From Ophelia neglecta (lineage: Eukaryota): 64,000 bases of DNA. This document shows, in pieces, positions 16,901-60,356 of the stretch (the first letter of the stretch is position 1; the number at the start of each line of letters is the position of its first letter). The stretch is taken from positions 97,526,001 through 97,590,000 of the forward strand of contig OZ260662.1 of the NCBI GenBank assembly GCA_965285935.1, in the 5' to 3' direction. Position numbers and translations under genes: made by a program. The notes below the pieces were generated by a model. It did not search any database and was not told the origin of the DNA. It saw only the letters and a list, made by a program, of their open reading frames with translations.

Positions 16901-19433
16901 GCAGCTTTTATCCCCGGAGTGTAACCCGAACACAAAGTTCACGGCTGATTTATGCATGCTGTTACCCTGTTCTGTGTAAGTGATAGTAGCTGAGTCGTGT
17001 AAGCAGCTTAATCACCTAAAATGACTAAGATGCTAGTAGCAGGTACTGCCTTGCCGGCATGGCCTGCAGTCAGATGCAATGCATGACAGATTGAACAAAC
17101 CCTAAGATTGCATTGCCAAATAGGTGTGTGCACACGAGCGTGCCCGTCTGCCGATGGCCGTGCCTCTACCTGTCCTTTGATAGGACAGTCCTAGGCCCAA
17201 ACCATTTACAGTCGCTTGTGAAAAATATCCTCTCTTCCCTCTCAGCAATGTGTGCACACGCTTTTATCAGCCGTAAATGAATTAAGTCGAGAACGTGTCA
17301 GGAATGTTTACCTCTATTAAGGGTGTACACGGGACATGGCAGAGCCTTAAAAAGCAGTGAATGTAGCTACCACCGCTCTTAGCAAACACTACCCAGTGTG
17401 AACAGTTGTGTGCAGTGATAAGCCTAGCAGGATAGTATATCTTACTTAAAGGCGCTGCACACGCCTGTCAACAGGAGTACACACTTTCTGTCTGCAAATT
17501 TCAAAGTCCAATTCATAGGCAAGAGGAGAATGGTAAGGCTTACATCACTGAGTGGAGTCTCGTTCAGGCCTTGTTAACATAGATAAGCCAAGAGGATTTT
17601 TGTGTACATATACAGCGTAGGGTACATCACCGCTGCACTGTTTGAATAATTTCCACGCAATACTTGAAAAGAGGATATGCACATAGTGTTCACAATGAAA
17701 ACGAGGAAGTTTCTAGTGTAATCCAAGTAGCGATGTTTTAGGTATCACATGGTTTGTGAGATATAGCGTCGGCGTTTTTTACCAGGAGACTCGGGATACT
17801 TCGCTGTTCACTTTGGCATTTCCCAACTGCAGGCCGGTAGACACTTGTACAACAGCTCCTCTGAACACGAAAGTGCCTGCACCATGTTAAATCTGCCTTC
17901 TAGACCAATTTCATTGAGAATAAGACAGAAGCTTATTCAAATTTAGGGGATAAGTGAAGTATACTGGTATTAACCGGAGGACTGAACTGGAGAGTGTAAG
18001 ATTGATCTAGCAGTTTGTACCTGACAAAGTAAGTTATTCCTGCAGCCATGTGTTGTTTGCTCTGTATTGTATTTTTGTCTGTCACGTATACACTACCGCA
18101 GTATGGTGATATGGTGATATATGGATGGGATGGTGTCTTCCGCCGTAGTTAAAGGTCAAGCTGGGGTTATTAGTAACAAAAGTACTGACTCTAATTGGAA
18201 GAAAACTAGAGCTTTGTATTTATGTTCTACTGAATAATTAATCAAGACCTGATATATTTGTTCAGTCTGTGTCTGTTATATTACATGTACACCAGTGTAC
18301 ATGTAGGTATCTTGTGTCTGACGTAGTTTTGCAGACTGGCTATTCATTTTATTTTTCAATATGGTCCCATACTGAATGCAGTCTATGGAATCTATACATG
18401 TACATTTTACTTGTGTGTACATATTATCTGGGTAGGTTTCAGTCTGTGGGAAAGTACTAGCTGAGCTCAATGAATATTTAATCATTTGTCTGGTGGCTTC
18501 AAGGTTAGGCTCAAAGGCACTGTGAACAACTATTTTTTTTATTCATACACTCTTTTTTTCGACCCAAATTCTTTATGTGGCTTCTTTACCGACTGCGACC
18601 TGTTCTCACACAGTTTGGTTTGTGCGAAAACATTGTGGCAGTGACTTAAAAACCAGACCATTATGGCTTTTTTTTTTGCAGCACAGTCAACAGTAGAATT
18701 CAAGTTTAGGCGGAGAGCAAAGTTTGGTTGTTGGCTTGGCTGTTATGAAGGGGTGCATGAAGTCACTATAAATGAGGCTCTTTTCAGTGATAGGCAAGTT
18801 TTCATATTAGACAGTGTGAATAGGTTTGATGGTTTGTGGAATTGGCAATTTTTTTGTGGGTAATGTCTACGTACTTCATAATTTAAACACAGTGTTTTAT
18901 GGGCAAATAATGGCCAATTTAGCTTGGTAATGATAGTTGGCGGGCTTAAAAAGAAGTTATGGAGTGATTCAGTCCACAAACTTCAATTGGTTTGATAAGC
19001 AATTCCATCATGGCTGCGCCCTCAAATCAAAGGACTTCTCAGAATTGTTTGCACCCTATCGCACGCTCTTATTGCATTTGTACTGTGGGAAGCGTGGTTA
19101 TGATGTCATTGGTGTTTTTTAGGATAGTTGCCAGGTTTTTTTATTGGTTCGGCTGGAGTTAGTTTTCCTCCATATGTGGTCATTACATGTGTTCAGATAT
19201 TCTACACATGCATGGGGCACATGAAACCTGAAAAGTACAGTTTACTAGATGGATTTAAGACCAAGACTGATTTACTTTTGATAATGTATAGAAATACTGG
19301 CATACTCTAACTTTAATTAAGTTTCTGTGTCAGTTTGGAGGGTCTGAATATTGCTCTGATTCCAGTTGTTCAATTCAATAATTCAATTCATAAATAGCAC
19401 ATGCATATACTATCATAATGATTAATAATAATA

Positions 19434-19611
19434 CAGTGAAACCTGCCTAAAAGGCCACCTCTATAATCAGACCACCTGTACAATCAGACCACTAAAATGA
19501 AGATCATGCTGTATACTTTCAGTGTTAAATAACCTGTCTAAACAGACCACCCTGAAAATCAGACCAGTATTTTTCAGTCCCTTTGGTGGTCTTAATTCAC
19601 AGGTTTCACTG
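19434..19611 (+). mobile_element. MITE family A (Tc1/mariner-type)
   Basis: TA|CAGTGAAACCTG...CAGGTTTCACTG|TA, 178 bp, with internal (A/G)GACCAC sub-repeats. Strand is assigned arbitrarily as the reference orientation. Confidence 0.93.
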
Positions 19612-20162
19612 TAGATAATCAGAACCTAATGATATCTGATCAAAATTTTAACATTATCTAGGTATCGAGATATTGGATTATAACACTGTACCAAAGAGAG
19701 AACTAGTGGTTTTCTGGTGTTCTATTTGGTTATAGTATAGCTAGGTGCTTTGTTTGCAGACTTTCGGTTGTTAATAACTAGCCACTCACACTTCCAATAC
19801 TGTATTTCTCATTCTGGCCACAATCATTTGAAAACATTGATAAGCCTGGATGGTGTTTGGGGTGTCGGGAGACCCAGGGATTAATAAAGCCGTATCCCTG
19901 TATGGTATGGACAGTGTTGACACAGCCCCATTGCTCTGTCTGTGACCGTGATAATGTAGTTTGACCCTGGCTTTGTAGTGGGTTCATAGCCGGGTCTGTT
20001 CTAGGGTCATCTACGGGACACTTGGCTGATCTTGTAAAGCCTACGTACAGGCTAGGTGATACAGGCTAGGTGACAGGCCAGATCCAGCCCAGAGTGAGGA
20101 GGACAACTGTACAAGTACGGATTGGGTAAGGTGACTACATAATGGGGTCTTATCTTAGGCTC

Positions 20163-22640: not shown

Positions 22641-24136
22641 GCTCGGTGAGGGGCTGAAGGTTTGGAGTCTGGCTGTGACTCAGTCTGTGAACGTATCCAT
22701 GCCTCCTTCTGTGTGTACAATCACCGGGTTGACATAAGGCCTAAAGGCAGTCTTCAAGCCATACTATTGTATCTTTGTAAATTCTTCCTGCTTGAATCCT
22801 AACTTTCAAATTCAGCAGGCCACTTTCAAATTCAGCAGGGCCTGAAAATTTGACACAAAAATGTGCAGCTAAAATGTATTGGCCCGCTCGGCTGGGAAGG
22901 TAGAATTCTAATAGGCCCGTCGCTAAAGTGATAGGCCTGGGCTTTTGGGCCCATGCTTATTTCTTTCCCTCTTTAAGGTTAAAAAAGATTGGCCAGTTCT
23001 CTGAAAATGATGAGGCTTCTTGTTGGCTGCTAAATATTTTTGTGGTGATACGTTAGTTCTTTTGTTTAGTTGCTTTCTTTCCTTCCTAAGGAAGTGCTTG
23101 ACTCACATTGAGTAATCCAACACATTTCAGGGCAGAATGTGCACAGGTTGTTAGTGCAAGTGAGTGCAAAGAATGAGCCATTTGCCAAGGATGCCACTTT
23201 ACATAGTATATCTACCATGAAAAATTCCTTGTCTACTGCCATTTGGAAAACCATTTGTGTATGACCTTGAGGGATTCTTGGTAGGCATAAAGATGGGTGG
23301 CATTCTTTTCCACACAAGCCAATAAACTGATTAACCCTCAATCGATAGGAGCCGTTTCAAATGCTGCTGATACCCAGTGATTGAAATTAGCAGATTTAGG
23401 GTTTTTCCTGTCTGGGTTGAAGAGGGATTACTATTTTATCCTGTCAGTTGACAACCTGAGCATACATTGTATCTATTTATCGCTACTTTCCGAGTCAGAT
23501 TTTCCAATGTGCTGAATTATATTAAGCTAGTGGAATCTCTAAATGAATTTGGCTTTGGCTGTAAATATCTGCTGAAGCTTTTAAGCCAGGACTGAAGTGG
23601 TGTTGGGTGGTGAATCTGGGGGGTGATTTTGGAATGTTTGGGGTGGAGATCAACAGGCGTTGTCGTCTGCTCCCTTACAGTTGCTTGGTAACCCTATAGT
23701 TCCAGCCCCAATGACAGGTTGATGGTAATTTGCTAGCGACAACCCATCCTTTTCTGGCTGGGTCATATGAACAGTGATTCTAAGGGACCTTGAATACCAT
23801 GTATTGTGTTTTATGTGTGCACAAGGCACAACCCACCTCTTAATGTGGGTCGTAATAGTACCTGTCTGCACGGAAAACGACCCACGTGTCCCACCTGGTT
23901 ACACCTGGGACTGGAGAGTTAACCAGTACATACATGAAACTCACTCATATGGAAGACTTTTTAACCGTTTTTTAGCCCGGATAATTATAAAATGTCAAAT
24001 GTAACTTACCACATCGGCTATAATTGCAGTTTAGTTAATAATTGATGTGATTAATGATGTTTCCTAATTGCATGTCATGTCAACTTGGTTAGATGTTTGA
24101 ATAATGGTAATAAACATGTATTTTTTCTCATTTCAG

Positions 24137-24812
24137 GTTCAGCCTTTTGAGGATAGACTCGTACCAAGTTCTATGATTCCATGCCAGTCGCCAAATCCTG
24201 AATAAAGTATCACATAGGTCAATTTTTTGTATCTAAAAACTGACAAAAGTACAAAAAAACAACATATATTTTTATACGTCCTGGGTCTTTAATGCCCAAT
24301 TGATTTTATCTTTGGTTTGCATTTCAATTTTTATCCTGCGAGTCTTTCAGTAGTAGTTTTGTATACTTTCTGACATACAAAACTGATTTATTAGCGCCAC
24401 TGTGAATTCACGAGAGTGACTTTTATGAACATTGAACACTATAGTAAGTAGCATATGAACTGACTTGCCTCGCACCCCGAGAAACGAACAGGAACTAGAA
24501 ATCCTGCTCGCCCACCAATCAGACTGCTAGAATTCATCACCGTGACGACAGTCACCATAGAAACCAATAAGCATCGTCCAGGTATCCATATTTAGTATGG
24601 CCATGGTCAACCCTATGAACAGTGCTGCCGTCATCAACCCCGCCATGTTTAACCCCAACGGGAAGGACTCGCGCTGGCTGACATTGGAGGTGTGCCGTGA
24701 ATACACCCGCCAGAAATGTACCCGCACCGACACCGAGTGCAAGTTTGCACATCCCCCTCCCCACGTGGAGGTACAGAACGGACGTGTGACATGCTGCTTC
24801 GACTCGATAAAG
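24137..24812 (+). other. mbl: Full mbl start-codon exon (676 nt: 460 nt 5'UTR + 216 nt CDS)
   Basis: Strong acceptor tattttttctcatttcag|G at 24136/24137 with about 40 AG-free nt upstream, and a donor at 24812/24813. A large UTR-plus-ATG exon matches the known structure of fly mbl and vertebrate MBNL1. The 5' boundary is predicted and has no transcript support. Confidence 0.75.
24597..24812 (+). CDS. mbl: Muscleblind/MBNL first coding exon (partial CDS, 72 codons; CCCH ZnF1 and start of ZnF2)
   Basis: The translation MAMVNP...[50 protein letters not shown] has the muscleblind WLxLEVCRE motif, C-x7-C-x6-C-x3-H spacing and the NGRVxxCFDS linker. The ATG has good context (agtATGG). Similarity ends exactly at a phase-0 donor, AAG|GTCAGC (24812/24813), the position of the conserved Mbl/MBNL intron after ...DS(I/L)K. 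Confidence 0.97.
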
Positions 24813-27800
24813 GTCAGCACATTTTTATATTACTTGATATTATACTTCATGTATACTACTTCATGGGTTTACTACTTATAGCTGTGATCTATTTTATCTG
24901 TTTTTAATATCCGACAGCTACGCAAATCCCTTTTTGCTAGCACGATTTCAAATCAAAGAATCAGGACAAAGCACAATAATTCACTCCTAACACCCAGTTG
25001 TCAATTTTTATGCTTTGGGCGGATTTTAGTTTGGTAAAAATTAGCATAACCCTAGTTTCACTGTGTATTTCTGTATAGTATATGTATGGGGTGTGTTAGT
25101 TATAAATAGAGTCATATGGAAGAGTCATATGATGTCAATAGAGTCACACTAGAGTCACATTAAAAAGAGCTAGATTATATAGATCATAGCTTTACATTCT
25201 TGTCTAAATAGTGCCCTGATTTGTAAATTGAATAGATTATGGCTATGTTATTGGTTGCTAAACATATATTAGTATATCCCCCAAAAAATTATAGTAATAT
25301 ATAGAGCATATTTTAAATGTTTATGCTGCTAACTTGAGTAGAACAAAAGAACTCCTGATTTTGTTGACCACATTTTGTGTACTCTTAAATTTGGATATTG
25401 TGTTTTGATTGTATGTGTGATATTTAGGTTTGTTATTGTTCTCCAATATGATGGTTATATTTAGGGGTGAGTGGTAACCTTGACGATGAGAGACAGATTG
25501 GGATGGTAGATTTATGTTATCACCAGTTATGATTGTTGTTTTAATGTAAGCGGGTGCAGTAATAACATCTGTTATCAGAGTTCTGCCGGAGGCTGTGTGC
25601 CTACCTGTCTCTCAGTTTGTCTGGATGTGTGTTTGTCTGTGTGTTTGTCTGTGTTGTCTGACTGTCAAATGAGCTAGTCACATTATGGTCAGATCATATA
25701 CATATTTAAACAATAACCGGTGGTCATCAGCACTAGGGATGAGGTGTATTAGTCACCATATGCTGTCATTGTCAGCTAACTGATAGAACATGCCCCATAA
25801 CCAAATACAACGTGCAGGACACATAACGTCAAATTCATGTCCGAAGGCTGTCATTAACCTTATATGTGCCAGAATATGTTTGATTAATTGATCGTGACAC
25901 GGGACATCCACCAACCTTATGTCATGACAGGTCACAGGTTTACTGTAATATCCCAGTTGATTTTTCTACATGTGCGCGAAAACAGACACAGCATTACTCC
26001 TATGTGCTATTAAATATCACCTGGCCGTGATCTTTTAAAGTTAATTACCTATCATCTGCCTTTTGTAGTTAATGACTTATAGGAGTGGTTGTTAGTCATT
26101 TTCATTTAATTATCCAAGCACATAACATGCAGGAATGAACAGTCTTAGGTCAAAAGTGAGGCCTTCTTTTCAGATTTACGTGTCGGCTTGCATGGGAAAA
26201 TGTCATTTTTATGTGTATTTCTATTTAAATATTGTTTAGGTGATGTATGACTGTCTTGATTTATGCTCTCGATGCTATCTCTGTCTGATTTTGGAAAATG
26301 TGGAGAATATTTGCTGCTCGTAAATCTCGCGAGCATTAACAGCCATGTCAGCGAAGTCCAAGTCCGTCTGCCTGCAGGATCTCTTATATATGTATCTGTC
26401 GATCTGCTCGTAATTAATCTGTTGTGGCCATGAAGATGTCAGCTCTGACGCATATCTAGGCTATAGTGTCTCACATATTGGTTGGATTGTATATGTTTAT
26501 GATCAAAAGTTTTTAGCTTTTTGTGTTGTTGATTGCCTGTTCTCTTGAGATATAAAAGTCCTTCCTGATGTGGCTAGACTCCACTCTGCACGGCAAATTA
26601 CCAAAAACAACTACCTTGAGAATGCTGCCTGATCACTACATTATTGCAGAAGGCTAAAAACTTGGACAAAATTTGGCAGTAGATAATACAGTTAGCTGTT
26701 GTTAGGAAAACTGTGTAATAAAGTGAGTGTAGATAGATATGCTAGCTTGATTAATGTCTGGGGGTGAGATGAGCATGGCGGCACGTAGCCTGCATATTTT
26801 AAAACCCCGAGTCGGAGACGTGCAAGAAAGGGCTATCTCGATGCCCTCGCAATCCTCCAAGGGGAAAAAATGACTTTCTTCCATCCTTACGCAATTAATA
26901 ATACTTTATCTAGGGTGCTTGTCTCTATGAAATGATAGGAACATCTGCACAGCTCCATCAAAATATGTGTAGTTGTTATCTCAGCAGACAGAGATGTTGT
27001 CTGAGAAATGCCCGCCTATTGGATCACATTGCAGGATTTGTCAAAGTAAATTGACTTCAGACTAGCAAAATACTGACGCAAAAGAAAAATGCAAAACTCC
27101 TCCAAAAATGGTATTAGTTAGGGATAAATGGGCCCTTCCGTATTGGGGCCGCCCAGATGAAAAAGGTAATCCTGCTATGGTTGATGGGGGCTGGACTTTT
27201 CTGTTTTATGTTAATTGGCTAAAATGCTGTGTACCATATTTGATTATTTCTTATTAATGTCAGTGTTTTCTTAGATGATAAATTCATCAGCTTGATCAGT
27301 AGTTCTGTTTATTACCAGTCAAATATCTAGCTGCTCTTTGAAATGACACAGACTGTAAAGTTGCATATTGACACTTCCCATAAAGTAGGGGTGTGGCTCG
27401 GTTGAAATCATGTGGTTCACTCTCGTATGCAGAAATAAATTGTGAAAACATCCTTTTATTAAGTAATGAAGAAATTTTATTGAATTTCATTGAATAGGGC
27501 TGACAATCAATAACCAAATGTTTGATTTATACATGATTTATATCTGATTTATATCTGATTTATGGTGAAACACAAATTTATTGAAGAAATGCGCTTTCTT
27601 CTGTCTAATTTCTCCACCAGCAATTTAACCAGCATTTATGTCGGCTCTTGGGCAATAAAAGCAGTGCGGAGGGATCATTAAACTAGTTGGTGAAGTACAC
27701 ATATTCTAGCGGGAAGTAGTGGAGGAGAGCTTTGATAGCTCAATCGCCTTATGTACCGGTAGATTGTGTTTACAAGACCTTGACTCCAATGCACCCAGCC

Positions 27801-29903
27801 AACCGGTGGCCAGAGGGAGCACTGTTCTGAAATTGCAGACTGTTCTATTCTTGCATGGGGGAGGGGGGGGGGCAGCTTGCTCTAGACCATGTTTCCACGC
27901 CCTAGGTATGATTGTTTCTACCCCCTTCCTTCTGTGCCCTACCCCACCAACCCATTTAACCATGACCATGTACATATGCCCTTTCTTAAATGCCGCACCC
28001 AAAACTTGGAAATGCCATTCACTCACACCAGCCCCTCCCCTGCAACATAACTCTGACTGAATAACATTTATTCCTCCAGATGGTTTAAAGAGATAACTCT
28101 AAAATGGGTATATCTTTCCTGCCGCTGAGAACAAACTCTGTGCTATATGTTACAGAGGCTTGTAATAAGAGACATGACAACTGACTAGCTCCTGGCTTGC
28201 CAGCTCATGTGATTATATTTCCTGTAAAACTTTACGACCTGTGCCGTGTGCAGCATGTCTGCTACAACTTATAAATTGCAAACAGACCTGCTTATCACCA
28301 GTTTTTTTTTACCTGAATGTTTTTTTATGTTTTGTGAGTGTTCAAAGTGTTGTGCGACACATCTCCCACACTTAGACTTTGAAGCCCAGCAACCCCAGAA
28401 ATACTGAACCAATTTAATTGAGGTAAATTTGTGTGTGGGCTTATTACCTATAATTAGAGGCATGCACCCAAGCTAAGTTAGACAGCAATCCTCAGGGCTC
28501 TGTACACAGTAGAAAAGGGCAAAACTAAGGGTGCCAAGTGATGAAAGGGCTCCAATTTATAGCCTCCAAAATTTCCTGGATAACAGTAGATGGTCTTTGC
28601 TTGTTTTGAGGGATTTGGTCACATGTCATGGACATAATTTTCATCAGTAAAGTATTGCTTGGTTTTCTGAGTCTTTGTATATACTTGTCAGTTTTGTGAT
28701 ACAAGTAGACGCTTTCATTCGGTTTAATTCCTATCTTGCAGATAAATTGCTAACAACACATTTGGGATTGTTTAAATTGCAGTATCATACAGAGGAGATC
28801 CTTTTCCAGTCCCCATTTCATCATCAATAATCGTTTTCGGTCCAGACCCTGCCGTCCCATCTAATCTGGCTCACACTCCCGGTAGGTTTCCCATGAGCTT
28901 TATGAGGTTTCCCATGAGCTTTGCTGTTTTCTGATTTGCTGCCTGACAATGCCCACTTTAGCCGTATAGCTTTTTCGATTACACAATATCGCAGCACACA
29001 AGCCGAAATTGCTTCTGACAAGTCAAATCGCAACTGCTGCTACTAGAAATGTATTGATTCTGGTATTTTTTCTCTGCCTAAAACATGATTTAATAGCTTT
29101 GCACAGTGCACTCCTTCCTAGCTGGCTCCATTGTCCCTTTGTATTTGCAGTTAGATGGTCTAAGCCTCAACAGGTGACCCTGTCAGAGCAGGCGATCACA
29201 GTGCTGGTTTATTTTAATGGTTTAATGTATCTTCTCAACAGAATCCTTTCATGCACACTCATGTCATAAATCTGCTTAATACCGCTAAACTAGAATTGAC
29301 GAGGGTCGTCTCTTCATAGAGACCCGAGATGTATAATAGACAGTTATCATGTTATCGAATAAAGCGGATTACCGAGAGATAGATGGAGCTGAAAGCTATC
29401 GTAGATGTTTATATGGTATAGAGGACTCATCAGTCCCACTGCTCTGAGCCTCTGGACCAAATGAGGAATTCACAGCACATATTAAATATGACAATTAGGG
29501 CTTGTGTTATTGGTAAGGTGGTTAGGGCAGCTGATCAAAGCAGCCTGTCATCCCCTCGGTGCTACTCTATCCATACCGATTACAGCCTCTCCATGGAAAT
29601 GTGGTTACACTCAATAATATAGAACATCAATATCTATCAGGCTGATACTCTCATCCAAGAAACTTCAACAGCAGCGAAACTTTACAGATTGTGTTTTACC
29701 GAATATTTATGAATATTTACGACCTCAAATGTTTCAGTTGCTGAGAACAGAGAGTGACTTACAATTGCTAAATAATTAAGGCTGAGTCGGAATGTCTCAA
29801 GCAGGAAATAGTTGCAATAATTGCGAAATGGGCAAAACATTTTTGCTCACAAAATATTCCTGATAAACAGTAAGTGAAAGCGTAAAAGGGGTATATTAGG
29901 CTT

Positions 29904-30359
29904 CTGTGATAACAGGCTGACTACAGGGTATCCTGTGATAACAGGCTGACTACAGGGTATTCTGTGATAGCAGGCTGACTACAGGGTATTCTGTGATAGC
30001 AGGCTGACTACAGGGTATTCTGTGATAGCAGGGTGACTGACTACAGGGTATTCTGTGATAGCAGGGTGACTACAGGGTATTCTGTGATAGCAGGGTGACT
30101 ACAGGGTATTCTGTGATAGCAGGCTGACTACAGGGTATTCTGTGATAGCAGGCTGACTACAGGGTATTCTGTGATAGCAGGGTGACTGACTACAGGGTAT
30201 TCTGTGATAGCAGGCTGACTACAGGGTATTCTGTGATAGCAGGGTGACTGACTACAGGGTATTCTGTGATAGCAGGGTGACTGACTACAGGGTATTCTGT
30301 GATAGCAGGGTGACTGACTACAGGGTATTCTGTGATAGCAGGGTGACTGACTACAGGGT
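29904..30359. repeat. Homogeneous minisatellite, 15 copies of 29/33-bp units
   Basis: CTGTGATAGCAGG(C/G)TGAC[TGAC]TACAGGGTATT; nine 29-bp and six 33-bp units. Confidence 0.97.
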
Positions 30360-31199
30360 TCTTTGAATCTTTATAAATTAAATACAGTTCTCTTTTTGAA
30401 TATATATGTTAAATAATTCTATATATATATATAAAGCTAAATGTCTTACTTAGCAATAAAATAAGATGTGTATACATACCTTGTTTATTAGATAGTCTTG
30501 TAGATTTCTATATTAGTCAGTTTGGTGTGTTTAAGGTGGTAGTTCTCAGTTACAGTTTACAACTCATCTGTTTGTTATAAATGAGTTGGAGACGTAGACC
30601 TTCTCAAAGACTGGGTTTCATCATAGAAGCTTGTTTTACATTCTGTTGATTGAAAGATCACGGGCGCCCCGACGTGTATAAATGCTTCAAGGAAATGGAG
30701 AAAGCAAAACTAGGAGAAACGGAAATGGAGGCCCTCACGTGAACTGCCTATGATGAATGTAACTCCTTATGAGTGTGTTAGATGACAAGGCTCGCCGTTT
30801 GTCTGTGGCGGCCATTGTAAATCAATCACTGACGATAACCATTTAGATCTTTATCAACTTAAATAGAACAATTGGCAGTGATTTAAATTCCAAACAATCG
30901 TACAAGGGACCTGGCAGTGCAAAGAGGCCAAGAAATACAAGGAGGAAAGTTACAAAGTGAGCTGAGGCTTGCCAGTTTGGATTCCCTCAATCAAATCAGC
31001 GTGTTTTGGATTAGGAAGGAAAACAAACTTGCCATTCCAAAATGACGTCTAGTCAATACTGGAGAAAACAAACTTGTCGCTCCCGACTGACTTGTAGTCA
31101 ATACCAGCCCCTCTGGCTGAGAGCTAGACCAACCAACCCAGTTGTTATCTAATTTTCGGATTGCGAATGGCCTTGACAGCTACTGAGGACTGAATGGGA

Positions 31200-31730
31200 A
31201 CCTGGCGCTCTGCTTAACAGGGCCAACTGAGTATCCATTCTCTGGGACTAGGGACAGATTGGGGACTGACTAGGGACCAGGCACATGGCTTGACAGGGCC
31301 TACTGAGTATCCCTTCCCTGGGACTAGGGTCTGATTGGGGACTGACTAGGGACCAGGCACATGGCTTGACAGGGCCTACTGAGTATCCCTTCCCTGGGAC
31401 TAGGGTCTGATTGGGGACTGACTAGGGACCAGACACATGGCTTGACAGGCTCTGATTGGGGCGCTTGGCTTTACAGGTCCTACCGGGTATCCATTCCAGT
31501 CTAGGGACTGACTGGGGACTGCAAGATTGATTAGGGACTGACTGGGGACTGATTAAGGGACTAACTCAGGACCTGGCACTTGGGTTGACAGAACCTACTG
31601 CCAGTAGGTTCTGTCAACCCAAGTGGGTGTCCATTCCTGTCAAGGGATTGACTGGGGACGGACTAAGCAAACCATTGACTGGGTACTGATTAAGGAATGA
31701 CTGGGTACTTGGCTTGACAGAGCCTACCAC
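31200..31730. repeat. 76-bp tandem repeat (about 3 close copies, then degenerate copies)
   Basis: CTGGGACTAGGG recurs at 31242, 31318 and 31394; GGCTTGACAG..CCTAC and GGGGACTGA motifs continue to about 31730. Confidence 0.9.
31577..31625. repeat. Perfect inverted repeat, 24-bp arms with a 1-nt spacer
   Basis: CACTTGGGTTGACAGAACCTACTG-C-CAGTAGGTTCTGTCAACCCAAGTG. Confidence 0.97.
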
Positions 31731-34700
31731 TGCTTGGCATGTTGACATACTGTATATGTACTGGGCTCTTTATTGACCTATCATAACTAGGATCACTGTG
31801 ACTAAGCCAGTAGTTCTGTTAGCCTTAGGTTTGAGTGTAGAAGCCAGCTCCCTAGACAGACTGTCTGATTCAGGCTTACAGTCTGTGTATTGTTAAACAA
31901 ACAGTTATGTCTTATGAAATTCATGTGAAATTGAGGAATACATTTTTAAGCACATACTTTTTTTTAGTAAATTGGTGATTTTAGAGATTAATGATGGTTC
32001 CTGGATGTGGCCAGCTGGTCTCGGGCTGGGCTGTCTACCCTGGTGAGGTTGTAGTAAGTGTGTGTGTGTGTGCCTTGAGAGTGTTATGGTGGCCTATGAC
32101 AGCAGCCACTGAAGGTTGTTTGATAATGGAAGGGCCCCTCTGGACATTGATACTTCTACTGAGTGTTAACTACTCAGTGACATGCGGGAATCCCAGGTAT
32201 GATCAACAAACAGGGATCCTCGGTACCTCGCCAGCCGCCCAGACTCCATAGAGATAGACTCCATAAAGATAGACCCCAGAGAGGTAGACTCTCAGGCCTA
32301 CAGGTATCAGGGCTACATCTTCTAGAACTATAGAAATATATATATCTAATGGGGGGGATTTGCCGAATGGGTGTAAAGTGTAGGGTAAGCCTGTAACCTA
32401 TATATTTATCTTCCATACAACTGTTTAGCATCTCCAGACAGTTTATAAACTGGACACTCCCTCCTGACCTGAACTGTGTACACATGTATTGACAGGCCAG
32501 GATGACCTGTAAGCTGGGGACACACTGATTGTGGTACCATGGGAAAGGTATAACCTTCTACACAGGACACCCAGCGTCCAACTGGTCCTAGTCAGCCCGC
32601 TGATGTGTGTACAAATGTGTGGAATGTCTACGCCCAGCCTCTCTGTCCATCTAAGATGTCTCCCACTGTTATGACTGATGCTAACCCCACCTTAAGTCAC
32701 TACTAACCACATGTCTGTTGATTCAAATAAATTAGATTGCCCATCAGTGCATGCAACAAAAATCATGCAATGTCTAAGTTATATTGACATTCTGGTTGTC
32801 TGCTGGCTTTACAGATGTATGATAAACAGAGCTGGTTCCCTGCAGATCCACGCTAGTTCCCTGCAAATGCTGGCGATGTCTGAGCATGTGTGCCTGACAC
32901 TCACAAAGCCTGCTCTGATGTGATTTTTATTGAGGGACTGGGATCATGAGAATGGCAGGGAACAAGCCGGCCATTACAATGTCCTAAATATGCTTTTCAC
33001 TGGGTGGATTTGCAGGCAGGGGAATAAAAAAGACAACTTGGTTGTCATTTTCAATAGTTTTTTTGATAGTTTACGGCCCAGTGCCTAACAGTCTTTGCCT
33101 GGGAGAGATATGTGGCCATTTATCAGCAATATATTCAAATTGACCTGCCTAAGAAATGCATTTCAAATGGAAATTAGCGGCGACCTAGGCAGACGTGTTA
33201 GTGAGGTTGTGTTATTTCTATGATTTAGGACCTAAGTGACCCTGGCTGTAGAGATAAAAGTCAGCAGAATAATGATCTGGACCCGTAAATGTCTGTCGAT
33301 AGCGGTAGATCAGGATAAGCACAGCATATTAATTTGGATGGCATGAGACGGGGCCATCAATATGGTGTCTGGAAGTGGGTATTCCCTCTCCCTGCCCTAG
33401 CCTTTCTGACCCCATACCTCTCGGCTCTCTTATCAACTCCATTAGAGCCTCTATCGCTAGCTTTCTATTTATACTGTAAGCTTCATACAGAATGTTTGTA
33501 GTTTTAATGCCACCAAATCCATCGCTAGCACATAATATTTTATTACCGCAGAGGTTTTATCACGGAATGCGAATGCAACCATCCACTGCCTGGAGCATGC
33601 AAAGATGGATTCACATTCCGATAATGAAAGGGCACCCCGTTGCATTTATCTTCTTAAAGTTGATTCAACAATGCAGTGCGGAAAATAAAAATGCACAATA
33701 GGCGGCATTGACTGGCTCTCTTGCAGAGCTTGGGTTTTGCTAACATTTACTTGTCATGGGGGTATAAATTCCATCTGGTGAAATTGATTTGAATGGCTGG
33801 TTTGTAGAGGGGGTCTATCTCTTCCAGAAGTCTGCCTATCTGATTCTCAACGTCTGCTGTTCTGGGCAAACCTGGCCTGAACAGCTGAATCCGATAACAA
33901 TAGGGTGCTGCTTTAATAGCAGAGTGCTGAGGATTTGCGCCCTCAGCGACCAGACGCTAGTAAAGTTTGCTGCCATCGTAGAGAAGATTAACATGAGTTT
34001 TATACTGTTTCTTGTGCCGTGGTATCTTGTCTGGGAGCAGACTGACTCAGAACTGGAGCTGCATATGAGCCACCCTGCCTCAGGTGACACCAGCAATGCC
34101 ATAAATTGACTGTGGCCAATTCTATAAATTGGGTACGGAGCATGCCGGCAACCATCTCTCCCGTGAGTAAAACCAAAGATGGAATTCCTCCTGTGTAAAG
34201 ACAGAAAACTCCGTCAAAGTACCTCAGGAACTCCCATCTCTGTGGAGTTTCAGTTGGTTTTATTGTGTGAACAAGCATTGGGACACAGTACAACTAGGTC
34301 AGATTTAAATAAAACCCCAAACAGGTTAAAACCGGCTAACAGACTGAATCTACCCAATTGTATTCAGGACACGACACATTTTTTCTTTGCTTCCTGCAAG
34401 GGATCTGTCCATGCATACAAGATGGGTCTCGATGTGCTTCTCTGTATGGCAGTCTGTAGGTTCACATAGCAGGGTGTTAAATATGGGATTCGCCTTCTTA
34501 CTAGCTTTCCCTTGACGACGTCTGTTTGTGAGACACCCACTTAGTTTGTATAATCTAAATATATCACCAGACTAATTAAAAGTACTAAACATGGCTGATA
34601 TAGGTCTAATTTATAGACAACATTTCTGTAGAAGATGCTCCCGTTCCTCACAGGTCTGCAGGTTTTTATCAGTCCTACCACAGAACTGCACAGCTCGTAT

Positions 34701-37700
34701 CAGGGCTGAAAACAACACTGATTAGGAGATCTACCCAGTGGGGTAGGGTCATGGCAATAACAATATTAGGCAGATATGTCTTTTTGCAATAATCAATGTA
34801 TTTTGTTTCAATTTTTTCATCATTTTCTAGATATTTATTAGTTTCGGACATTCTAATTGGTTGATATTGGTGGCATTCAATTAGGCCAACGTCTACCTGC
34901 AAGACTTCCTTATTAAGTTGTTTGTGTGCATTTTCAGTGATACACATGAGAATGGAGGCTGAGTCAGTGAGGTGAATGTGTCAGACAATATGCGTCTGTG
35001 TTTATTAGCTGGGTAGGCTTTGTGGCCGGGTCAGAATTCATCAGAGGGTGTATATCACACACTATTTAACACATTAAGCAGAGGGGAGGGATTAGATATT
35101 CTAGGCAGCATATGGATAGGAGGTCATTAGGGTGTTGAATGCTACCTAAACAGATGCTCCCTGGCTGTAAACAAGAGGCGGCAGACGACCAGGGAATCAT
35201 CGGCCACATACAACACTTGTTATCAGTGATTATTATAGGCAGACTTGTGTCAGATTCCTCGGTTTAACAAATACACTAGGGTGGTTTATTTGGGAATGGA
35301 TGAGTAAAAACGTGCTGCTGCTAGCTGTGGTAATCCTGTTAGAGCCAGGACGCTGTACCCTGCATCAAGGCTTTTGGTAGAGAGTATTTGTGATCTAGGG
35401 AGATTTTTTTTTGGGGGGGGGAACCACCTAGTGCACGCACCCAGTGGATTTCTAGATCACATCTTGAGAGCCATTTGGAGAGTTAGGGGGGGATGCTGAC
35501 AGCCCCACCCCTCCTCACCGCCCCATAGACTGCCTGTAGTGTCTAGCCTGTAGTGTGGGGGAGTGCCTCATTGTCAGGAGATCTGAGAGTTGTATGTAGT
35601 ATGTGAGCCCAGAAATGTAAGATGGAAACCAATTACAGCCTGGGAGACCACACCAACTCGGCATTCCTCTCTCACGGCCACAATGGCTGAATTGATGGAA
35701 ATGTGTTGTTTGGTCGAAGGCGGAATGAGGGAATTGGTGATTGGTGATGTATTGAACAGCACTTAGAGGGTTTACTAGCAGCCGTGTGTGTCTGATTGGC
35801 TGATTATTCAGGTCACACAATTCATTACTGTCTAGTTAGTAACCTAAAAGAGCCCTTGGCCTCTCAATACCTCCCATTCTGATGCCCGGACATGAATTCA
35901 TGGGGGGGGGGGGGGGGGGGTTAGTAGCCTTAAAGACAACCCAAAACCTGGGGGGGGGGGGGGATTATTGTGTTGTCCACATAACTCAGTGATACTAAAA
36001 GTTGATTGGCCAATGTATTACACAGGCTGGAAAGAAGGCAAAGGTGGTTATAATAGGTGCCATAAAAGGAGACGAGTTACCCAGGGTACCCCTGTAATGA
36101 CCTACTTTATTGCTGTTGGGCTACATCTGTCTAATAACTTTTCATTAGGGCTCACACAATTATGTCCTTCCTTCCAATATGGCATGTTCCCCAGAATGGG
36201 GTCCTGCCTTCCATGGCACCCACAATGAGGTCCAGCCCACTATGGCATCCCAGAATGAGGTCCCAAACGCCTTCCATGGCACACACCTCACTATGAGATC
36301 CTTCCTTCCTTAGCTGGCTATTGTAGTGGGTACTTAGACCTCAGCCATCTGGGTAAGTGGCAGCAAACTAGGAGACTGGTCAAACACTGGCCTACAGCTC
36401 AAGTAGTAGTAAAATAGTACATCCACAGCTTCCCAAGTTGAACTTCTCTCATCTTTACTGGAGAGGTAAAAACAAGCAAATTCATATACTTCCTCCAGTG
36501 ATGAGGAATCCATTTGGTATATTGGCCTATTGTTGTCTTCGGAAACTGCTGGAAGGGTAGATTTTTATGCCTATTCTAGGAAGCACTCACCGTTTGGGCC
36601 TGGAGATTTGAGCCACACAATACAGTGATATTTGTGTTCTTAAAGCTACCCAGGCTAGTCTTGAGCATGCCGAATAGAGCCTCACATCTATAGATTTGAC
36701 GATCTCCCCGAGGCTATCCGTTGCTAGTAAATTCATGGCAAGGCCTGTGAGTTGATCCTTGACATGGCAGGAATCTTTCTCCGGCTACAGCCATTTTTCA
36801 ATGAATTCTTTTGCCAATTTGCGCCAGTTTTGCAGAGAAAAGCGCCAGAGGACTTTTGGCTTGTGATTGGGCAGAGGCTGTTCTACATGCTGATGTATCA
36901 TTTCTGTCATTTAGGCCAACTTAAAACAGCTGTGAAGCTTTCTAAAGCAACCTTTGTCTGCAATTTATCTCTCCGCCAGACCATGGCTGAGGCTGCCGAT
37001 ATATGTATGACTTGAACTGCGTACATATTGTAAAACAGAATACGCTTGGAGGCAAATTTGGCAAATATAGCTCAGGATTGATCATCGACATGAATTGTAT
37101 GCTGACGGACTCGAGCCAGGAAGTTTTCCCTACGTAAAGTGGAAGCGGAATGTAAATTTCACAAAGGATATTTATACAAACAGGAAATATATTTGTTAAT
37201 TTCGCAATTCAAGAAATAATGTCCTGCTCTTGACAATTTTGTTATTTACAGTAGTGATGTGGCTGAAAATGCCAGAGCAAGCCATATATTCTCCTCACTC
37301 TGTGCCCAACTCATCTAAATTCACCTAATCTATCACAGCCGTTTCCTGACCTAAATTTTTATAGGACAAAAATGAAGCCGGCGACGGAGTTTTGATGGTG
37401 ATATACAGTATGTGGGTTTGCTGGGTTTGATGGATATGCCGTCAAAAGCTACCCGAGATATTTCATCAGAGGGAATATGCTTATATAAAGGCTCTATCTG
37501 TCTTGTGGAAGACTTGCACTTGGTAATCTGGATTTCAGCCCTCCAGCTTTAAATAAGGCATAGCATATTACTGCATGGTGCACTGCCAAAAATATACATG
37601 AAAACAGCATAGCAGCATAGTTTGCTTTATGGTGGAGTTTTTTCATATCGTTAAGATTTTCGGAGATGGACTGAAATAGGATGTCTAGATATAGGTGACT

Positions 37701-40700
37701 GTGTGACAATCAGGGAAGAAGGGGACAGCTCACAGGGAGGGTACGGGAGGGGCGGCTCCTCATCCTTAGAATACCGCCCATTGAAATGGCTGGCCCCTAG
37801 CTGCTCCACCACTTAGGTGAGTGCTCCCTCCCTGCAGGGAACTCTCCATCGCTTTCATCTCATCCACTAGGAATTGTCTACATCAAGGAGGGTGCTTGAC
37901 ATTTAAATGAACAGCCAGTCTCCTGTGACCAATCTGAATGGCAAGCCAGACAGTTGAGTCTATCAAACCATCCACCCCGCTGCATTTGAACTTCAAATGA
38001 ATCGGTGATTTCAAGTGGGAAAAAAAGCTAGCTTTCTAGTACCAACCCCATTTTACATTGATTGTCACCTGGTTGATGAACTATTACCTGTTTATCGGCC
38101 AGTCTGCCTTATTTACGACAGTCCCGTCTCAGAGTGGGCTTTTGAGAATGATTGTTACGTTCTTTACAGCCTAGATGACATTCCCCAATGATTCACTGCT
38201 GTGTTTTGTGCCGTTTTTTGCAAATCAATTTTCGTGCCCAGACACTTTTTTAGCCACCTACAGGCTTTGAAGCTGCTCGCCCACTTAACCTAGTAGAGAA
38301 TATTGCTATATTAAATTTGGTTATGGATGTGTTTTTAATACATATACTGGGAGAATTTTTCACAACTCTATGACATAGATAGAGCTGGTTGCCAGGCTCC
38401 TACGGCCTTAATCTTATTGATGTTACCCCTTCCCGTGGTGCAATGTCTGTCTCACTTGTGTTGAAGTAGATCAGTTCGTACTAGTTCTGAGGGTTTTTTT
38501 TGGGGGGTTAAGATTACTGTATTAGGGTGGGATCTATTGGTTAACCCTTTCTTATTAATGGACCACCCTATGGGGCACCCTTAGTGACAAATAAAAGAGA
38601 TATCTATATATTGTAAGAGAAAAACAAAAACTGACCAGAGCATTAATGAACTCATTGACAAATATAAAATGTAGTTTGTGTGCAACTCTCATTGCAAATA
38701 AACAATTGTGCACCTGAGCGTTTTTATTAAAACTACACATGGATTCCTTTCAGAGTAAATTGCGCCTATATAACATTTGGCACGATTGCCCTGGTGAAAA
38801 GAAACGCATCTGGTGAGGCGCATGTTTCTTGTGTCAAAATATTGATTGCCAAAAATATCTTATCTTTGACATCTGGGCCGCTCTCTGAAGGAGGGTCTGG
38901 ACATCATTGGCCCCTTCAAAAGGACAGTTCGGACATCTATGCCCCCCTCAAAAGGAGGGAACTGGCATCTGTTCCCCTCTAAATGAGTGTCATGTGACAT
39001 CCCTGCCCCCTCTAAAATCCTCGAGCACTATTAAATAGCTAGGACTCTCAACAGGGTAAAGATGACAATGCGTGGGTTGGGATGGGTTCAATACTGTCTC
39101 TTTCCTAAGTAATTTACTGTTGTTTGGTCTCATCCTTGATGCTGTCCACTCAAGCAAGGCATTGACCCATCCCAGCTCATTCCATGCAGGAGGGTCTGCA
39201 GGACTTGCTTGCAATAACAAATTAATTGCTTTGTGTGAGCTGGACTTCTGGTCAGTTTGTCACTAGTGTACTACCAAGGTGAAAAGACCAAGTACAAACT
39301 GCATACAGCAGAATACAGCTCCTTGGGGGGTATCCTGGAAACCCATATGTCCATACTATATCTATATGATTCCAATGGGTTTTTGACTTTGCTGGGATTC
39401 AAACTCACAACACAATATTAAGTATGGTTAGTAGAAGTTAGCCTTGACATGGGGTAAATGTGAGAAGGTGCCCACTGGGCATCATAACATGAATAACTGC
39501 TAGATGTACAGATAAGACTTACGAAAATTGCACCATGAAATTCTATCAGTCACCCATTCTCCCGCTCTAAGGATTTTGTTATCTCTGTAATCATGGTGGT
39601 TTGTGTTTGTGCCTGAGGTGATTGATTCTTGTCATATTTTTCCGATTTACAAGTTATTTGAGTTGGGTAAGGTGTACTGATGTTAATGTGTACCACAGCA
39701 CTGCCTGAGGATGTAAAACCCGGATGAGCCTAAACCCGGACCAAGGGTTCGGCAGCCAGCTCAGCCCAGCAAGCTTAACCCGAGGTAACCGAGATAATCG
39801 GACCGGTTCATTATAACCAGATCCTGGAGCATGGCCCATTACCGTGGTAACCAGACAAGTAATAACCTTGAAACACATCAGCCAGTCATTATTTATGGTC
39901 AACTTTCTCAGCGTTTAGCTGGTTTTCATGCCATTTTAACACAATACAGACACATATAGCCCCTGCCAGGATCTGGCTATGTGTTTATTATGCCTGCTGA
40001 TGCAGCTGGAATGACTTCTGCATGTTTTCATTGGGCTATGTTTCTTTTTACCAAGTGTGTGTCATGCGTGTCCAATGTTAGGACTTGTTGAACTTAATTT
40101 ACTTACCCAAATAGCCATTTGAGTGTCCCCTGACCTTGGTATAAATGATATAACAGTATACCTGACTATGTAAATTCTACCTGGTAACAGTCAGACGAAT
40201 CTTGATGGACTTCATGCTTGAATGTCTTGTGAGTCTAGTATAATACATTTAATGTTCATTTGATTTTTTTCCTATAGTACCAAATGCTTTGATAAATATC
40301 ATTTTAATGGATCTTTGGGGGACTGTTTGACAATGAAGCAAATGATTTATATTCCCCGTCCTGGCCCTTGTGTTATTTGAATCCAGACATGTTGAAAGCT
40401 GCACGTGTGTAGACAAAATTTGGCTGACCCATTTTGGACCAATCATCACTGGCTCTATGCCATAGTACCTTCAATTCTTGACAATAAAATGTACTTTTGG
40501 ACTAAAGTTCATTGATATGCAAATGTTGTACTAATATTTGTTGGGAGCGAAAAAGGTTGGGGATAAAGCTTCCTACTGGAGATAACTATGTTTGCATAGT
40601 GGTACTCCTGCAGGAAATGAATATTTGCAAATACAGACGGAAATTTCCTTGATAACTTTTATCATTTTTGCCATTGTAAGTATAATGCTGGCGGGCAAGC

Positions 40701-43700
40701 TCAACAGATTATATCAACTGTGATATCAGATAAAGCACTGTGTTTTATTCTACTTTCAATATCTTCGGTTACATATAGAATAAAATGAAACTTAGTGCAA
40801 CATTACAGGAAAAGCGATGGTTTATTTTGTCGAAACCTTTGAACTCATTGACTGCTGAAGTAGCTGTTATGTCCCTTAGCTCAGGATGTTTGCATTCATC
40901 TGTGTTACTTAATGAGTTAATAAATTACTCCATAACATAATAGGTGATAATTTTGTTTGATTGCTTTTTCATTGGGAATGCATTTAAGTCATCTTCCTAT
41001 GATAGAGATAGAAGTTTGTGTAAGTACTTTCAGCGTGCATCTGCATCCAATCAAATGTGAAACCAAAAGTGTAGGTAAATTTGTACAATATGAATAGCAT
41101 GCCATTAATACTGGTAAGTTGATGCAAGCCCAGCCGTGTGGAAATGTTGAGGGTTTAAGGCCGCTATGTGGACCTGGCCTACCGCAATATGTCCTGTTTT
41201 CTCGAAGATCTGTTTTCTGAATAACAACTGAGATTATATGCTCAGGTCCAATTCTGTGGGGGTGTGACTGAATGTTCCCAGAAGGCAAATCACACTCAGG
41301 TCTCCGTGATAAATGCCCCTCTTTGGTGTGTCCCTGAAAATAATCTGTCTTCTGCCTTGAAACCAGCGTATTCTGCTGTCAGCAGATGTTTCATTCAGGC
41401 TTCAGTCATCTATTTCTGAATATTTTCCTTATATGATATAGGTTTCCCACAGATATATTGGTTTTTTGTGAGAGCAACAGCGTTAAAATATTGCTCCATT
41501 TTTCATGTCAACGGATACCTCCATAATTTGAGTTTTAGTCCAATATTTATGTCCAGCTTTACTTTCTGTATGTTGCAAGCTATCTTTATTCCTCCATTGG
41601 CTCCAGCTGAGGCGGTTAAACTTGGTGCATAACATCTATAGAACATTCAGATTAAACGGCAATTGATAGAGCTTATTTTTCATTCCTTGAATTTCAAGTG
41701 CATCAATCTGTCACTGACTTCCGATGTCAGACTTGGCCGTTTTATTGATAGTAAGGAGAGGTATTAGGCTCCGTTGATAGCTATGCATCGTTAATCACAC
41801 TGTGTCAGAAATTGGGAAATTCTTGCTAAGATTGGAAATTCTTACACAAGATGGAAAGAAGGCAATAAAGAAACGGTAATCAAACTCTGTGAAGATGTGT
41901 AATATACTGTAAGATACCAGAAAATTTGTTTGACTGAAATATGAGAAGAGTATTAATAGTCTGTTTTATTTGTGAATAGTGTTGTTTATCAGTGTAGGAG
42001 TTGGTATTTTGTTGGGTGTGATATGAAGATTGTCTACATACCATGGATATGCCAATGATGAGATTCAAAGTCTACACAATATGAATTAGGATGCAACAAC
42101 CAATTGGATCAAATGTTTGGTGTAATAAGTGACAAGTCAAATTGCTGGAGTTGAACGTGGTATGATATTTGACCAGGAGTGAGTGTTCTGGAAAATGGGA
42201 TGAATTAAATAAATAGGGTGATAAATGGATCTGTGGATCCATTTAAAATCAGGTCCCATACCATATGTCAGTTCAAAAAAGGTCAAATACAGAGTAGAAG
42301 GGTGCAGACAGCAGCTCACACGTTGATCAGCTACCCCCCTACCCACCCTCCTGACCTCTCCCTTGCTAGCTCCCTGACCCTCAATCCTGGGACAGTCCCT
42401 ACTGCCCTCAACAAACATCAAGTAGGTATGGTTAGTTTCTTACTTGCCATGTTTACATGTATCTATGTACATGTACTGACTTGGCTCATGGACCATAATA
42501 ACAACATTAGCCTTGTACATTCACTAGCCTGCCCTTGTCTATCCTGAGCCAAGGTCATGGTGTAATACCCACATTCCTGGCCTCATTCCTAGCTAATGAG
42601 GCCAGGAAGATGGACATACAACTTGACCTATTTTGTGTTGAGCTTTTAGCTCAATATGCCAGCCCAACAGATTGTGCCACTACAAGTATCTTTTTGATGT
42701 ATAACTGGCTGTTGATGGCAGTTGTGGTGAGATGTCGGACACCGGCTATTTGGCAATGTTTACATACTAGTCAGTAGCATTCTGGTGTGAACAGTCATAT
42801 CTCAAGTACAGCCAGCTTGTGACTTACCACCATCTGTGTGCCCTGCGTAAAGCTCAAGGACACCCACCTAACGTGTGTCGTCCCAGACCTGACACCAGAG
42901 GGCAGTCTTATCATTTGTATGGTCTTTCAGTAGTTTATGACCTCCGGCTGCTACTCCACATCAATTTATTTAATACTTCTGTTAGTTTCACAATTTTAAA
43001 GTCATGAAAAGTTTGCCGGACTTGCATTTCATGTATTGGTGAAAACCCCAATTTACCTGGTAGTCTGGTAAACATGAAGAGTATTTGATGATAAGATAGC
43101 GGCTTGAATTCCTGATATTTCATATGTTCCTCATTTACCAACATTTTGTGCACTAGGCTATTAAATGAAAAGATTTGACAATTTAGGAAGACTAATTGTA
43201 TGCTAAATAACTTGTTGCAGCCGACATTTTGAAATCAACCTAAAGGTAGTTTTACTGTACGAGTGACATTGACATACATTGACATTGCCGTTGGGTTTGT
43301 GTATATCTCTGGTCCTCTTTCTCAGTTGGGACATCTACCAAGTCTAGACTTTGAAACTCTACCAAGAGTATATATCCTGTAGCCACACACATAGCTCCGG
43401 TGTCTAGACAGAATGCACAAAGTAACCATATCAGAAGGCTCAACTGCCAGCTACAAGCCAGGTTTTTGCCACTTTTTCCAACGCCGTATGTATGCGAGCC
43501 CAAAAGTCATAAGTAAAGTAGACGATCTCTTTGTAAGTGAATTCCGAAGCGCAGGTGTAATTACTTAGCTTCCCTGCAGGAATTTGAACCAAAACGTTGG
43601 AGCGTCTGCCGAATGGGGACAGCTAGAGAAATGAAGTACCCCAACAGGATGATTATGATTAAACAGACGTGTACGTTTTTCTGAGATTCAATGGCACAGT

Positions 43701-46700: not shown

Positions 46701-47848
46701 CGCTGGCCGGCCATCTGGCCCTAATCTCACCCTGGCTATCACCCTCGGCTCATTGATTTCCAGTGTTTGATGAAGGAGATGGGCTTGCCTCACAGATCCC
46801 ATTGCTCAGGGCCCTATGATTTTATTGATAGCTCTCCTTGTAACTGATACTCATTGATAGCATTAGGCTGATGTCCTTGTAACTCGCTGGACCCCTGATA
46901 TGTAGTCACAATTGGTTGGAGATGATTTGACCCGTCAGGCGCCTACTATACTTGTATCTACATAACCGATCAGGCTCAAATCCCGGCCAGGCTTAAAGTC
47001 TCAACAGCACATGTTGTTAACTGTCTTTCACCAGAAGGAGAATTGAATTTCAGCTGTTTGTTAAGCTATGGTAAAGGCTGTGCACTTTATCACCCGCTGA
47101 TGGGCATTTCTGGCCTGTCCTCAGAGCATTGACGGAATCAATGCTGAGCGTCCAAGTCCTCCTCTCATTTTACAACCGCTCTGAGGATGAATAGAAATAG
47201 AAACAGCATTAACACTTTGAAAATACACAGCTGAATATACCCAGCTGAGCTGCATGCTGCAGGAGACGGGCAAAGCTTCAAACAAAGCCTGATAGTTGTA
47301 GGATGATGGATTGGGAGGGTTCTGATCTCCGATTCATCAAGGAGGCCATCTAGCTGTATCCACTCATGTGACCACTTTCAAAAGCAGTTTGATCTGGCCC
47401 CAACAATATTATGGACCGATAGGACCAACAACTACTGCCCCCCTCCTCCTTCCCCCTACCCTACTCTCCAGGAGGGGAAGGTTGGGCAACAGAAAATTCT
47501 GTTGAACCATTCTCGGTAACATGAAATGGTTTTATAAAGAGGCCTTGGCCAGGGCCTTGGTTGAGTGGCAGCCAGCCGGGCAGCCAGCCGGTCCCACAAT
47601 CAGCTGGTCCCACAATCAGGGTGCCCTCAGGCATGGCGTGCCAGCGAGCAGAGAACCATAGACAATACAGTGCCAGCCTACTCATGCCAACTCCTCATTG
47701 AGTAGATTTACTGCAGACTACCTGACGCTAAAGTCCGATCAGCAGGTCAGGTGGATCCTTCCTGGAGGACTCAAGTGTTCTTGGGGGAGAGAGATATAGA
47801 GCGGAGGGGGAAGGGGTGGCCTTAAAACCTCTTTACTTTTACCCATTA

Positions 47849-47956
47849 CAGTGGTCCCTGCGATGTAGCCCCCCCCCCCCCTTAAATCCAAGGAAAAGTG
47901 ACCCTACATTGCAGGTGGCACTTCATTGGAGGGGCCCTACATCGCAGGGACCACTG
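47849..47956 (-). mobile_element. MITE family B, internally deleted, inverted copy
   Basis: Same TIRs and TA duplication, 108 bp. The reverse complement matches the 4707 and 55951 copies but lacks the ~70 bp between the two CCACCTGC(G/A)ATG repeats. Confidence 0.9.
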
Positions 47957-55950: not shown

Positions 55951-56128
55951 CAGTGGTCCCTGCCATGTAGGGCCCCTCCGATGAAGGGCCACCTGCGATG
56001 GCAGGACAGTTTTTGAATTCCCATGTCCTATCTTTTCCATGTTAAAGTACCTCCGATGGAGGGCCACCTGCAATGTAGGGCCACTTTTCCTTGGATTTAG
56101 GGGTGGCCTTACATCACAGGGACCACTG
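55951..56128 (+). mobile_element. MITE family B
   Basis: TA|CAGTGGTCCCTG...CAGGGACCACTG|TA, 178 bp, colinear with and highly similar to 4707-4885. Preceded by TACATGTACATGTA. Confidence 0.93.
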
Positions 56129-60287: not shown

Positions 60288-60356
60288 AATGTTAGAATGG
60301 GCCCCATTGGTGATTTTTGAATGTTAGAATGGGCCCCATTGGTGATTCTTGAATGT
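60288..60356. repeat. 32-bp tandem duplication
   Basis: AATGTTAGAATGGGCCCCATTGGTGATT(T/C)TTG x2. Confidence 0.9.

Follow-up and report, generated by a model that had tools for sequence, protein, structure and literature searches.

Muscleblind start-codon exon

The window, a 64,000-nt stretch of genomic DNA from Ophelia neglecta, contains the beginning of a muscleblind (mbl) coding sequence on its forward strand, with these two features.

24137..24812, + strand: predicted muscleblind start-codon exon of 676 nt (460 nt of 5'UTR and 216 nt of coding sequence), homologous to the circMbl exon
24597..24812, + strand: Muscleblind codons 1-72 (ZnF1, the linker and the first Cys of ZnF2), placed by PF22628, structure matches and homologs

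A T-rich tract precedes the AG at 24135-24136. The coding sequence opens with the ATG at 24597 and extends over 216 nt to 24812, where a GT follows in phase 0. The 72 encoded residues matched Pfam family PF22628 (E 9.7e-11) and the MBNL1/2 ZnF1-2 structures 3d2n, 5u6h and 2rpp (E 7e-23 to 5e-22). The search returned 1099 homologs, which were longer proteins. The best matches that carry names were muscleblind from molluscs, from a nemertean, from a brachiopod and from annelids, with the Capitella protein at 94% over 69% of the 72-aa query; this pattern of matches probably marks the gene as lophotrochozoan. A search of the same genome gave two matches, both within this muscleblind gene, and the 5'UTR of the exon was single-copy. 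All four ligands of ZnF1 are present (C33, C41, C48, H52), while ZnF2 keeps C67 only within the exon and loses three of its four ligands, in agreement with an earlier sequence-only reading that had described an intact ZnF1 and a broken ZnF2. Downstream exons carry ZnF2, ZnF3-4 and a third finger pair, with tandem CCCH spacing of CX7CX6CX3H / CX7CX4CX3H, which agrees with the spacing given in the available text of PMC9780971. Judged by homology, the region 24137-24812, with its predicted 5' boundary, is the start exon of an invertebrate muscleblind gene.

The third CCCH pair (ZnF5-6) was located on two downstream exons, at window-equivalent positions 90358-90442 and 91060-91178 (L069). Six fingers were present in 34 of 120 long homologs; a third pair is ordinary for invertebrate Mbl.

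Contigs of three sequencing runs spanned the region continuously, as genomic DNA would, with no joint listed at the start exon, and are uninformative on splicing. Among the contigs listed, X1 (20836-25072) had three differences, all outside the start exon. Inside the 5'UTR, donor-like signals were seen at 24443-24449 and 24579-24587, together with a weak AG at 24580-24581. None of these weak signals, at 24443, 24581 and 24582, was accepted as a splice site, the pyrimidine tract being poor. A hypothetical 231-nt exon starting at 24582 would give an endless frame if circularized.

Splice donor and predicted acceptor

The boundaries of the exon were assigned to the following sites.

24813..64000 and past the window end, + strand: phase-0 donor and intron leading to the exon that completes ZnF2, placed by homology
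24112..24136, + strand: predicted 3' splice site (T-rich tract, CAG), heuristic score 12.8
24143, + strand: alternative tandem acceptor, in frame and 6 nt downstream, giving a 20-aa tail, score 7.6

The donor was surveyed in 64 related loci, 61 of which had the exon-end motif. A GT stood right after the same codon in 52 of the 61, eight were already spliced to the next exon, and one had GC. The donor at 24812 is secure. All eight spliced related contigs joined the normal next exon. A repeat of a contig's own upstream sequence, which would be a sign of back-splicing, was found in none of the nine related contigs lacking the GT, a comparison in which linear assemblies are uninformative. The downstream intron is 44,777 nt long, and the ZnF2-completing exon begins at window-equivalent position 69590. 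Long introns are described as typical of start-codon (AUG) circRNAs in the part of PMC6487579 available to us.

Candidate acceptors were ranked with a simple home-made heuristic. By this measure the acceptor before 24137 ranked 13th among the 4091 AGs in the window and first within 1 kb of the ATG. It outscored seven of the eight homology-placed acceptors of the same gene, two of the eight having uncertain boundaries, and sites scoring this high occurred in 6 of 44 intron windows of 1 kb. The score is suggestive only. A further candidate lay at 23681 (score 12.1). A GC/CpG scan located no upstream exon or promoter within 54 kb upstream.

Sixteen related loci were also scored, with a band of 360-460 nt upstream of the ATG picked after looking. 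Four loci sharing a similar N-terminus had acceptor-like sites at comparable distances from the ATG (L003, 372 nt; L006, 395 nt; L008, 380 nt; L011, 360 nt), and the site was the best-scoring one in three and second in L011; the intron background was 0.18-0.61 such sites per kb. No top-scoring acceptor lay in this band in L009, L012, L015 and L018, and eight of the 16 loci, belonging to a more divergent group, differed in acceptor pattern.

UGCAUG, which we take to be an Rbfox-type motif, was noticed post hoc upstream of the predicted acceptor in three of five loci, at 24069-24074 in the window and 101-151 nt before the acceptor in L003 and L008. In the window alone, its occurrence upstream of the acceptor was not significant (p 0.21).

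Reading frame across the predicted junction

Joining the donor back to the predicted acceptor brings two overlapping reading frames of the 5'UTR into consideration.

24137..24205, + strand: 22 open codons and a TAA that back-splicing would append, from the in silico join
24173..24205, + strand: uORF of 10 codons that shares frame and stop with the circle tail, its start being one of five upstream ATGs in the UTR

A scripted join of 24812 to 24137 reproduced what had been reported from the sequence, namely a 676-nt circle with a phase-0 donor and a 94-aa product made of 72 Mbl residues and 22 residues from the 5'UTR, closed by the TAA at 24203-24205. The tail contains a single Cys and lacks His. 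The caution that 22 open codons are not unusual was well founded, as 17-28% of control positions did as well. Runs of at least 22 open codons started from 16.6% of 459 UTR positions and were present in 24% of UTR shuffles; among 4022 AGs of the window, 27.6% preceded such a run. The control median was 9-11 codons.

The frame and stop conservation proposed as a check was not seen at the exon start: the predicted tails in four distant relatives (L003, L006, L008 and L011) were 15, 42, 1 and 13 aa long and mutually unlike. Fifty alignments of exon starts against UTRs gave a best p of 0.01, and none survived correction; a likeness between the exon starts of L003 and L005 (p 0.03 among 50 tests) was rejected. 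Among these relatives, all of them distant species with predicted acceptors, we found no conservation of frame, stop or sequence after the junction; constraint specific to the Ophelia lineage may still exist. Because the length of the open run is at control level and the tails of relatives are unrelated, the 22-residue tail looks like chance, and it probably arises as a by-product, free of selection, when the frame runs on into the 5'UTR. Genome-wide, according to the consulted portion of PMC6487579, the ORFs past the junction of human and mouse AUG circRNAs have the length expected by chance (median 10 aa) and show no conservation, and functional circle ORFs are expected to show codon-like conservation according to the available text by Hansen (bioRxiv 10.1101/2020.12.10.418848).

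Two further groups from other lineages, each made up of closely related loci, allowed a finer comparison. In 24 loci (19 distinct) representing a divergent mbl copy (L025-L030, L032, L034-L036, L040-L044, L047, L049 and L054-L060), only 9-12 nt separate the acceptor from the ATG; circularization would produce a stop-free frame in 18 of them and a five-residue tail in the other six. In 12 loci (10 distinct) with a conserved acceptor-like site (L031, L033, L037-L039, L045, L046, L048 and L050-L053), the predicted tails were 24-71 aa long. The 12-locus group also had two short conserved non-coding blocks about 285-345 nt before the ATG, one of which resembles an acceptor, with a conserved 20-mer that includes an ATG just behind it. 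The window matches that block over 13 nt at about 23987-23999, probably by chance.

The description of the tail as circle-specific was only partly sustained. The 22 residues would indeed be appended by the back-splice, but the uORF of the linear mRNA at 24173 comprises the last 10 codons and the stop, and three longer predicted circles would share the end. Pamudurti et al. raise a confound of this linear uORF type for circle stop codons (PMC5387669, in the part seen). The longer nested circles of 841, 1027 and 1270 nt, with exon boundaries taken from homology and some alternative exons left out, were all in phase 0 and would encode 149, 211 and 292 aa on the same 22-residue end. Their predicted products retain whole finger pairs. 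The peptides proposed for mass spectrometry (MS) turned out not to be diagnostic, as the tryptic site behind K72 coincides with the junction and both peptides lie wholly in the UTR-encoded part; Asp-N would release a nonapeptide (residues 69-77) that crosses it. The post-donor part begins with V in 106 of 120 short homologs, as donor read-through predicts. One homolog, P0151, resembles the tail start in five of six residues, eight residues past the donor, which was treated as chance.

YGCY sites, RNA structure and flanking repeats

The exon contains 16 YGCY motifs against 8.3 +/- 1.9 in shuffles (p 0.005), and its 5'UTR alone has eight where about four are expected (p 0.02-0.04). The sites are dispersed across the exon, with just two of the 16 in the first 100 nt. 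Neither the flanking introns (0.5-kb and 2-kb flanks) nor the four genomic relatives, compared by their UTRs (p 0.14-0.55), showed enrichment; one of three related transcripts was marginally enriched (p 0.048). The enrichment in the window is modest, several regions having been tested. The linear fold of the exon was unremarkable (z = -0.29), and Rfam gave no match within 20000-30000.

The nearest inverted repeat pair around the exon involves the following element.

19421..19613, no strand assigned: high-copy repeat whose inverted counterpart lies at 61711-61906 (196 nt, 87%), the nearest inverted pair flanking the exon

This repeat is roughly 190 nt long, very high-copy, interspersed and MITE- or SINE-sized, with a summed contig depth of about 164,000 against about 25 alongside; another copy lies about 13.4 kb upstream of the window start. 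The repeat pairs flanking the exon comprised three inverted and two direct ones, and the nearest inverted pair, 4.5 kb and 37 kb away, is high-copy. Inverted repeats were rejected as a circularization signal, being distant, high-copy and not commoner than direct pairs, and the nearest pair is probably incidental. Elsewhere in the window, tandem repeat arrays occur at 1887-2328, 12806-13206, 29902-30359 and 31184-31449, and near-perfect palindromes at 31577-31625 and 42552-42629. The stretch 8001-10000 is GC-rich (52%), strongly CpG-poor and G-skewed, in surroundings of 37-44% GC.

Comparison with known start-exon circles

The fly circMbl analogy held for gene structure. Drosophila circMbl (circMbl1, mbl exon 2) and the Ophelia locus have in common the start exon, a donor inside ZnF2 and a long downstream intron, as far as the available portions of PMC5387669, PMC9352392 and bioRxiv 10.1101/2025.10.31.685782 describe the fly gene. 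In the same partly available sources the fly circle is observed, abundant and ribosome-associated, whereas that of Ophelia is predicted only. The flanking introns here also lack YGCY enrichment, and the tail has no detectable counterpart in the relatives compared. The multi-exon circMbl3 of Drosophila (PMC5387669, seen in part) resembles the longer circles here in that these too close in frame and keep finger pairs, by prediction.

Mammalian MBNL1 exon 1, the source of circMBNL1, is a homologous exon with an equal coding end (query residues 23-72 align to the MBNL1 ZnF1-linker) and is likewise YGCY-rich. In the text of PMC5389549 at hand, nine conserved YGCY sites cluster at the 5' end of that exon with CLIP support, whereas the 16 sites here are dispersed and their binding is predicted. 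The AUG circRNA class of PMC6487579, as described in the part consulted, shares the start-codon exon, a long intron (here the downstream one) and a closed ORF ending a chance distance past the junction (median 10 aa); that class rests on junctions sequenced in human, mouse and fly, and the Ophelia case is a sequence prediction.

According to the accessible text of PMC9352392, which cites Ashwal-Fluss 2014, flies and mammals both produce circMbl from the start exon, and MBL promotes its formation. Mostly on such prior knowledge, we think it fairly probable that the Ophelia start exon back-splices into a circMbl-type circle. This is a prediction by analogy, of a kind possible for almost any animal mbl gene. 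In titles and abstract openings, we found no report of circMbl in molluscs or annelids.

Folding and translation of the predicted product

An AF2 model of the 72-aa fragment had a mean pLDDT of 51, with about 60 over ZnF1. A homolog with an intact tandem, modeled at equal alignment depth, scored about 90 across its two fingers. Sequence and alignment both vary between the runs, pLDDT is not stability, and the modeled part is the first 72 of 94 residues; the contrast between fragment and intact tandem may be read as a hint only. ZnF1-2 form one compact unit via a beta-sheet linker, according to the part of PMC9780971 available, and the one-finger fragment would probably be poorly folded and short-lived.

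The 5'UTR has AU-rich patches of up to 75% AU in 40-nt blocks, and its five upstream ATGs would also lie on the predicted circle. In the available part of bioRxiv 10.1101/2025.10.31.685782, fly circMbl is translated in lysates and cells, the 43S complex is proposed to land in vitro on AU-rich UTR patches, and the circMbl UTR drives about 60-300x less reporter than linear mRNA. The portion of PMC5387669 seen reports footprints at the stop codon of fly circMbl and, from synaptosomes and from starved flies, a band of roughly 10 kDa; there, MS did not pick up the junction peptide of circMbl1, and the longer circMbl3 (37 kDa product) has MS support. Because fly circMbl is translated in lysates and cells and has footprints at its stop, some translation of a circle here is plausible.

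A proposed autoregulatory RNA or a possible selected product

We lean toward the reading that the start exon forms a circMbl-type autoregulatory RNA and that the tail is an unselected by-product. On the model of MBL/MBNL1 in flies and mammals, Mbl would recognize the YGCY sites of the exon that carries its start codon and favor skipping or circularization of that exon; MBNL1 is reported, in the part of PMC5389549 consulted, to bind YGCY in its own start exon and induce exon skipping. Either outcome would remove the start codon from the linear message, diverting pre-mRNA from protein and damping Mbl levels, and the result would be a negative feedback loop on Mbl. Translation, if any, would proceed by weak cap-independent initiation at the host ATG and yield a one-finger fragment.

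It is possible, at a clearly lower probability, that the exon is merely linear or skipped, or that it begins elsewhere, at another acceptor or at a promoter that would make it the first exon; no 676-nt circle would then exist, and the 94 aa would be a paper construct. The acceptor is a prediction of a quality matched in 6 of the 44 intron windows, with competitors at 23681 and 24143. The 54-kb GC/CpG scan yielded no upstream exon, the eight spliced related contigs are all linear, close inverted repeats are absent and the flanks lack YGCY enrichment. Against this stand the acceptor-like sites at similar distances in four relatives and the conservation of the circle between flies and mammals (PMC9352392, as far as available), and the eight linear joins say little because assembled contigs would seldom reveal a circle. 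It is very improbable that the open stretch reflects a regulatory uORF of the linear mRNA, beginning at ATG 24173 or in an upstream exon, instead of a circle. The in-frame ATG with its shared stop would fit such a uORF, as would the in-frame ATGs in the predicted tail of L011 and the confound that Pamudurti et al. raise (PMC5387669, in the part seen), but no ATG occurs inside the predicted tails of L003, L006 and L008, and a 10-codon uORF is common by chance.

We regard as improbable a translated circle whose one-finger product of 94 aa (or, in the case of the two-exon circle, 149-aa product with intact ZnF1-2) has been selected as a decoy or modulator of Mbl. The closed ORF from the host ATG would suit it, as would the AU-rich patches, similar to those where the 43S complex is proposed to land in fly circMbl, the fly band of roughly 10 kDa with the MS support for circMbl3 (PMC5387669, in the text available) and the phase 0 and common tail of all four nested circles tested. 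The chance-level, unconserved tail argues the other way, as do the folding of ZnF1-2 as one unit and the poor model of the fragment, the five upstream ATGs on the circle, translation about 60-300x below linear mRNA from the circMbl UTR and, in the portions of the sources at hand, the circMbl1 junction peptide that MS did not identify (PMC5387669). Another MBNL1 truncation, a different one with two fingers, lacked stability and exerted no dominant-negative effect, according to the part of PMC5389549 seen. The decoy or modulator step, where the fly analogy ended, found no support here. The tail has a chance length and no likeness to the tails of distant relatives, and the fragment is the broken half of a two-finger module. 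An extended form, in which the nested circles of 676, 841, 1027 and 1270 nt give a ladder of one-, two- and four-finger Mbl truncations on the common 22-residue end, with the 149-aa form competing with full-length Mbl, seems a long shot; if true, translated circMbl would reach into the third great branch of the bilaterians, the spiralian one.

On whether circMbl peptides matter, the donor is fixed across animals while the frame after the junction shows free variation; this speaks for conservation of the RNA loop and not of the peptide tail. If the circle were confirmed, circMbl feedback would operate in a lophotrochozoan as in flies and mammals, and would date to the bilaterian ancestor.
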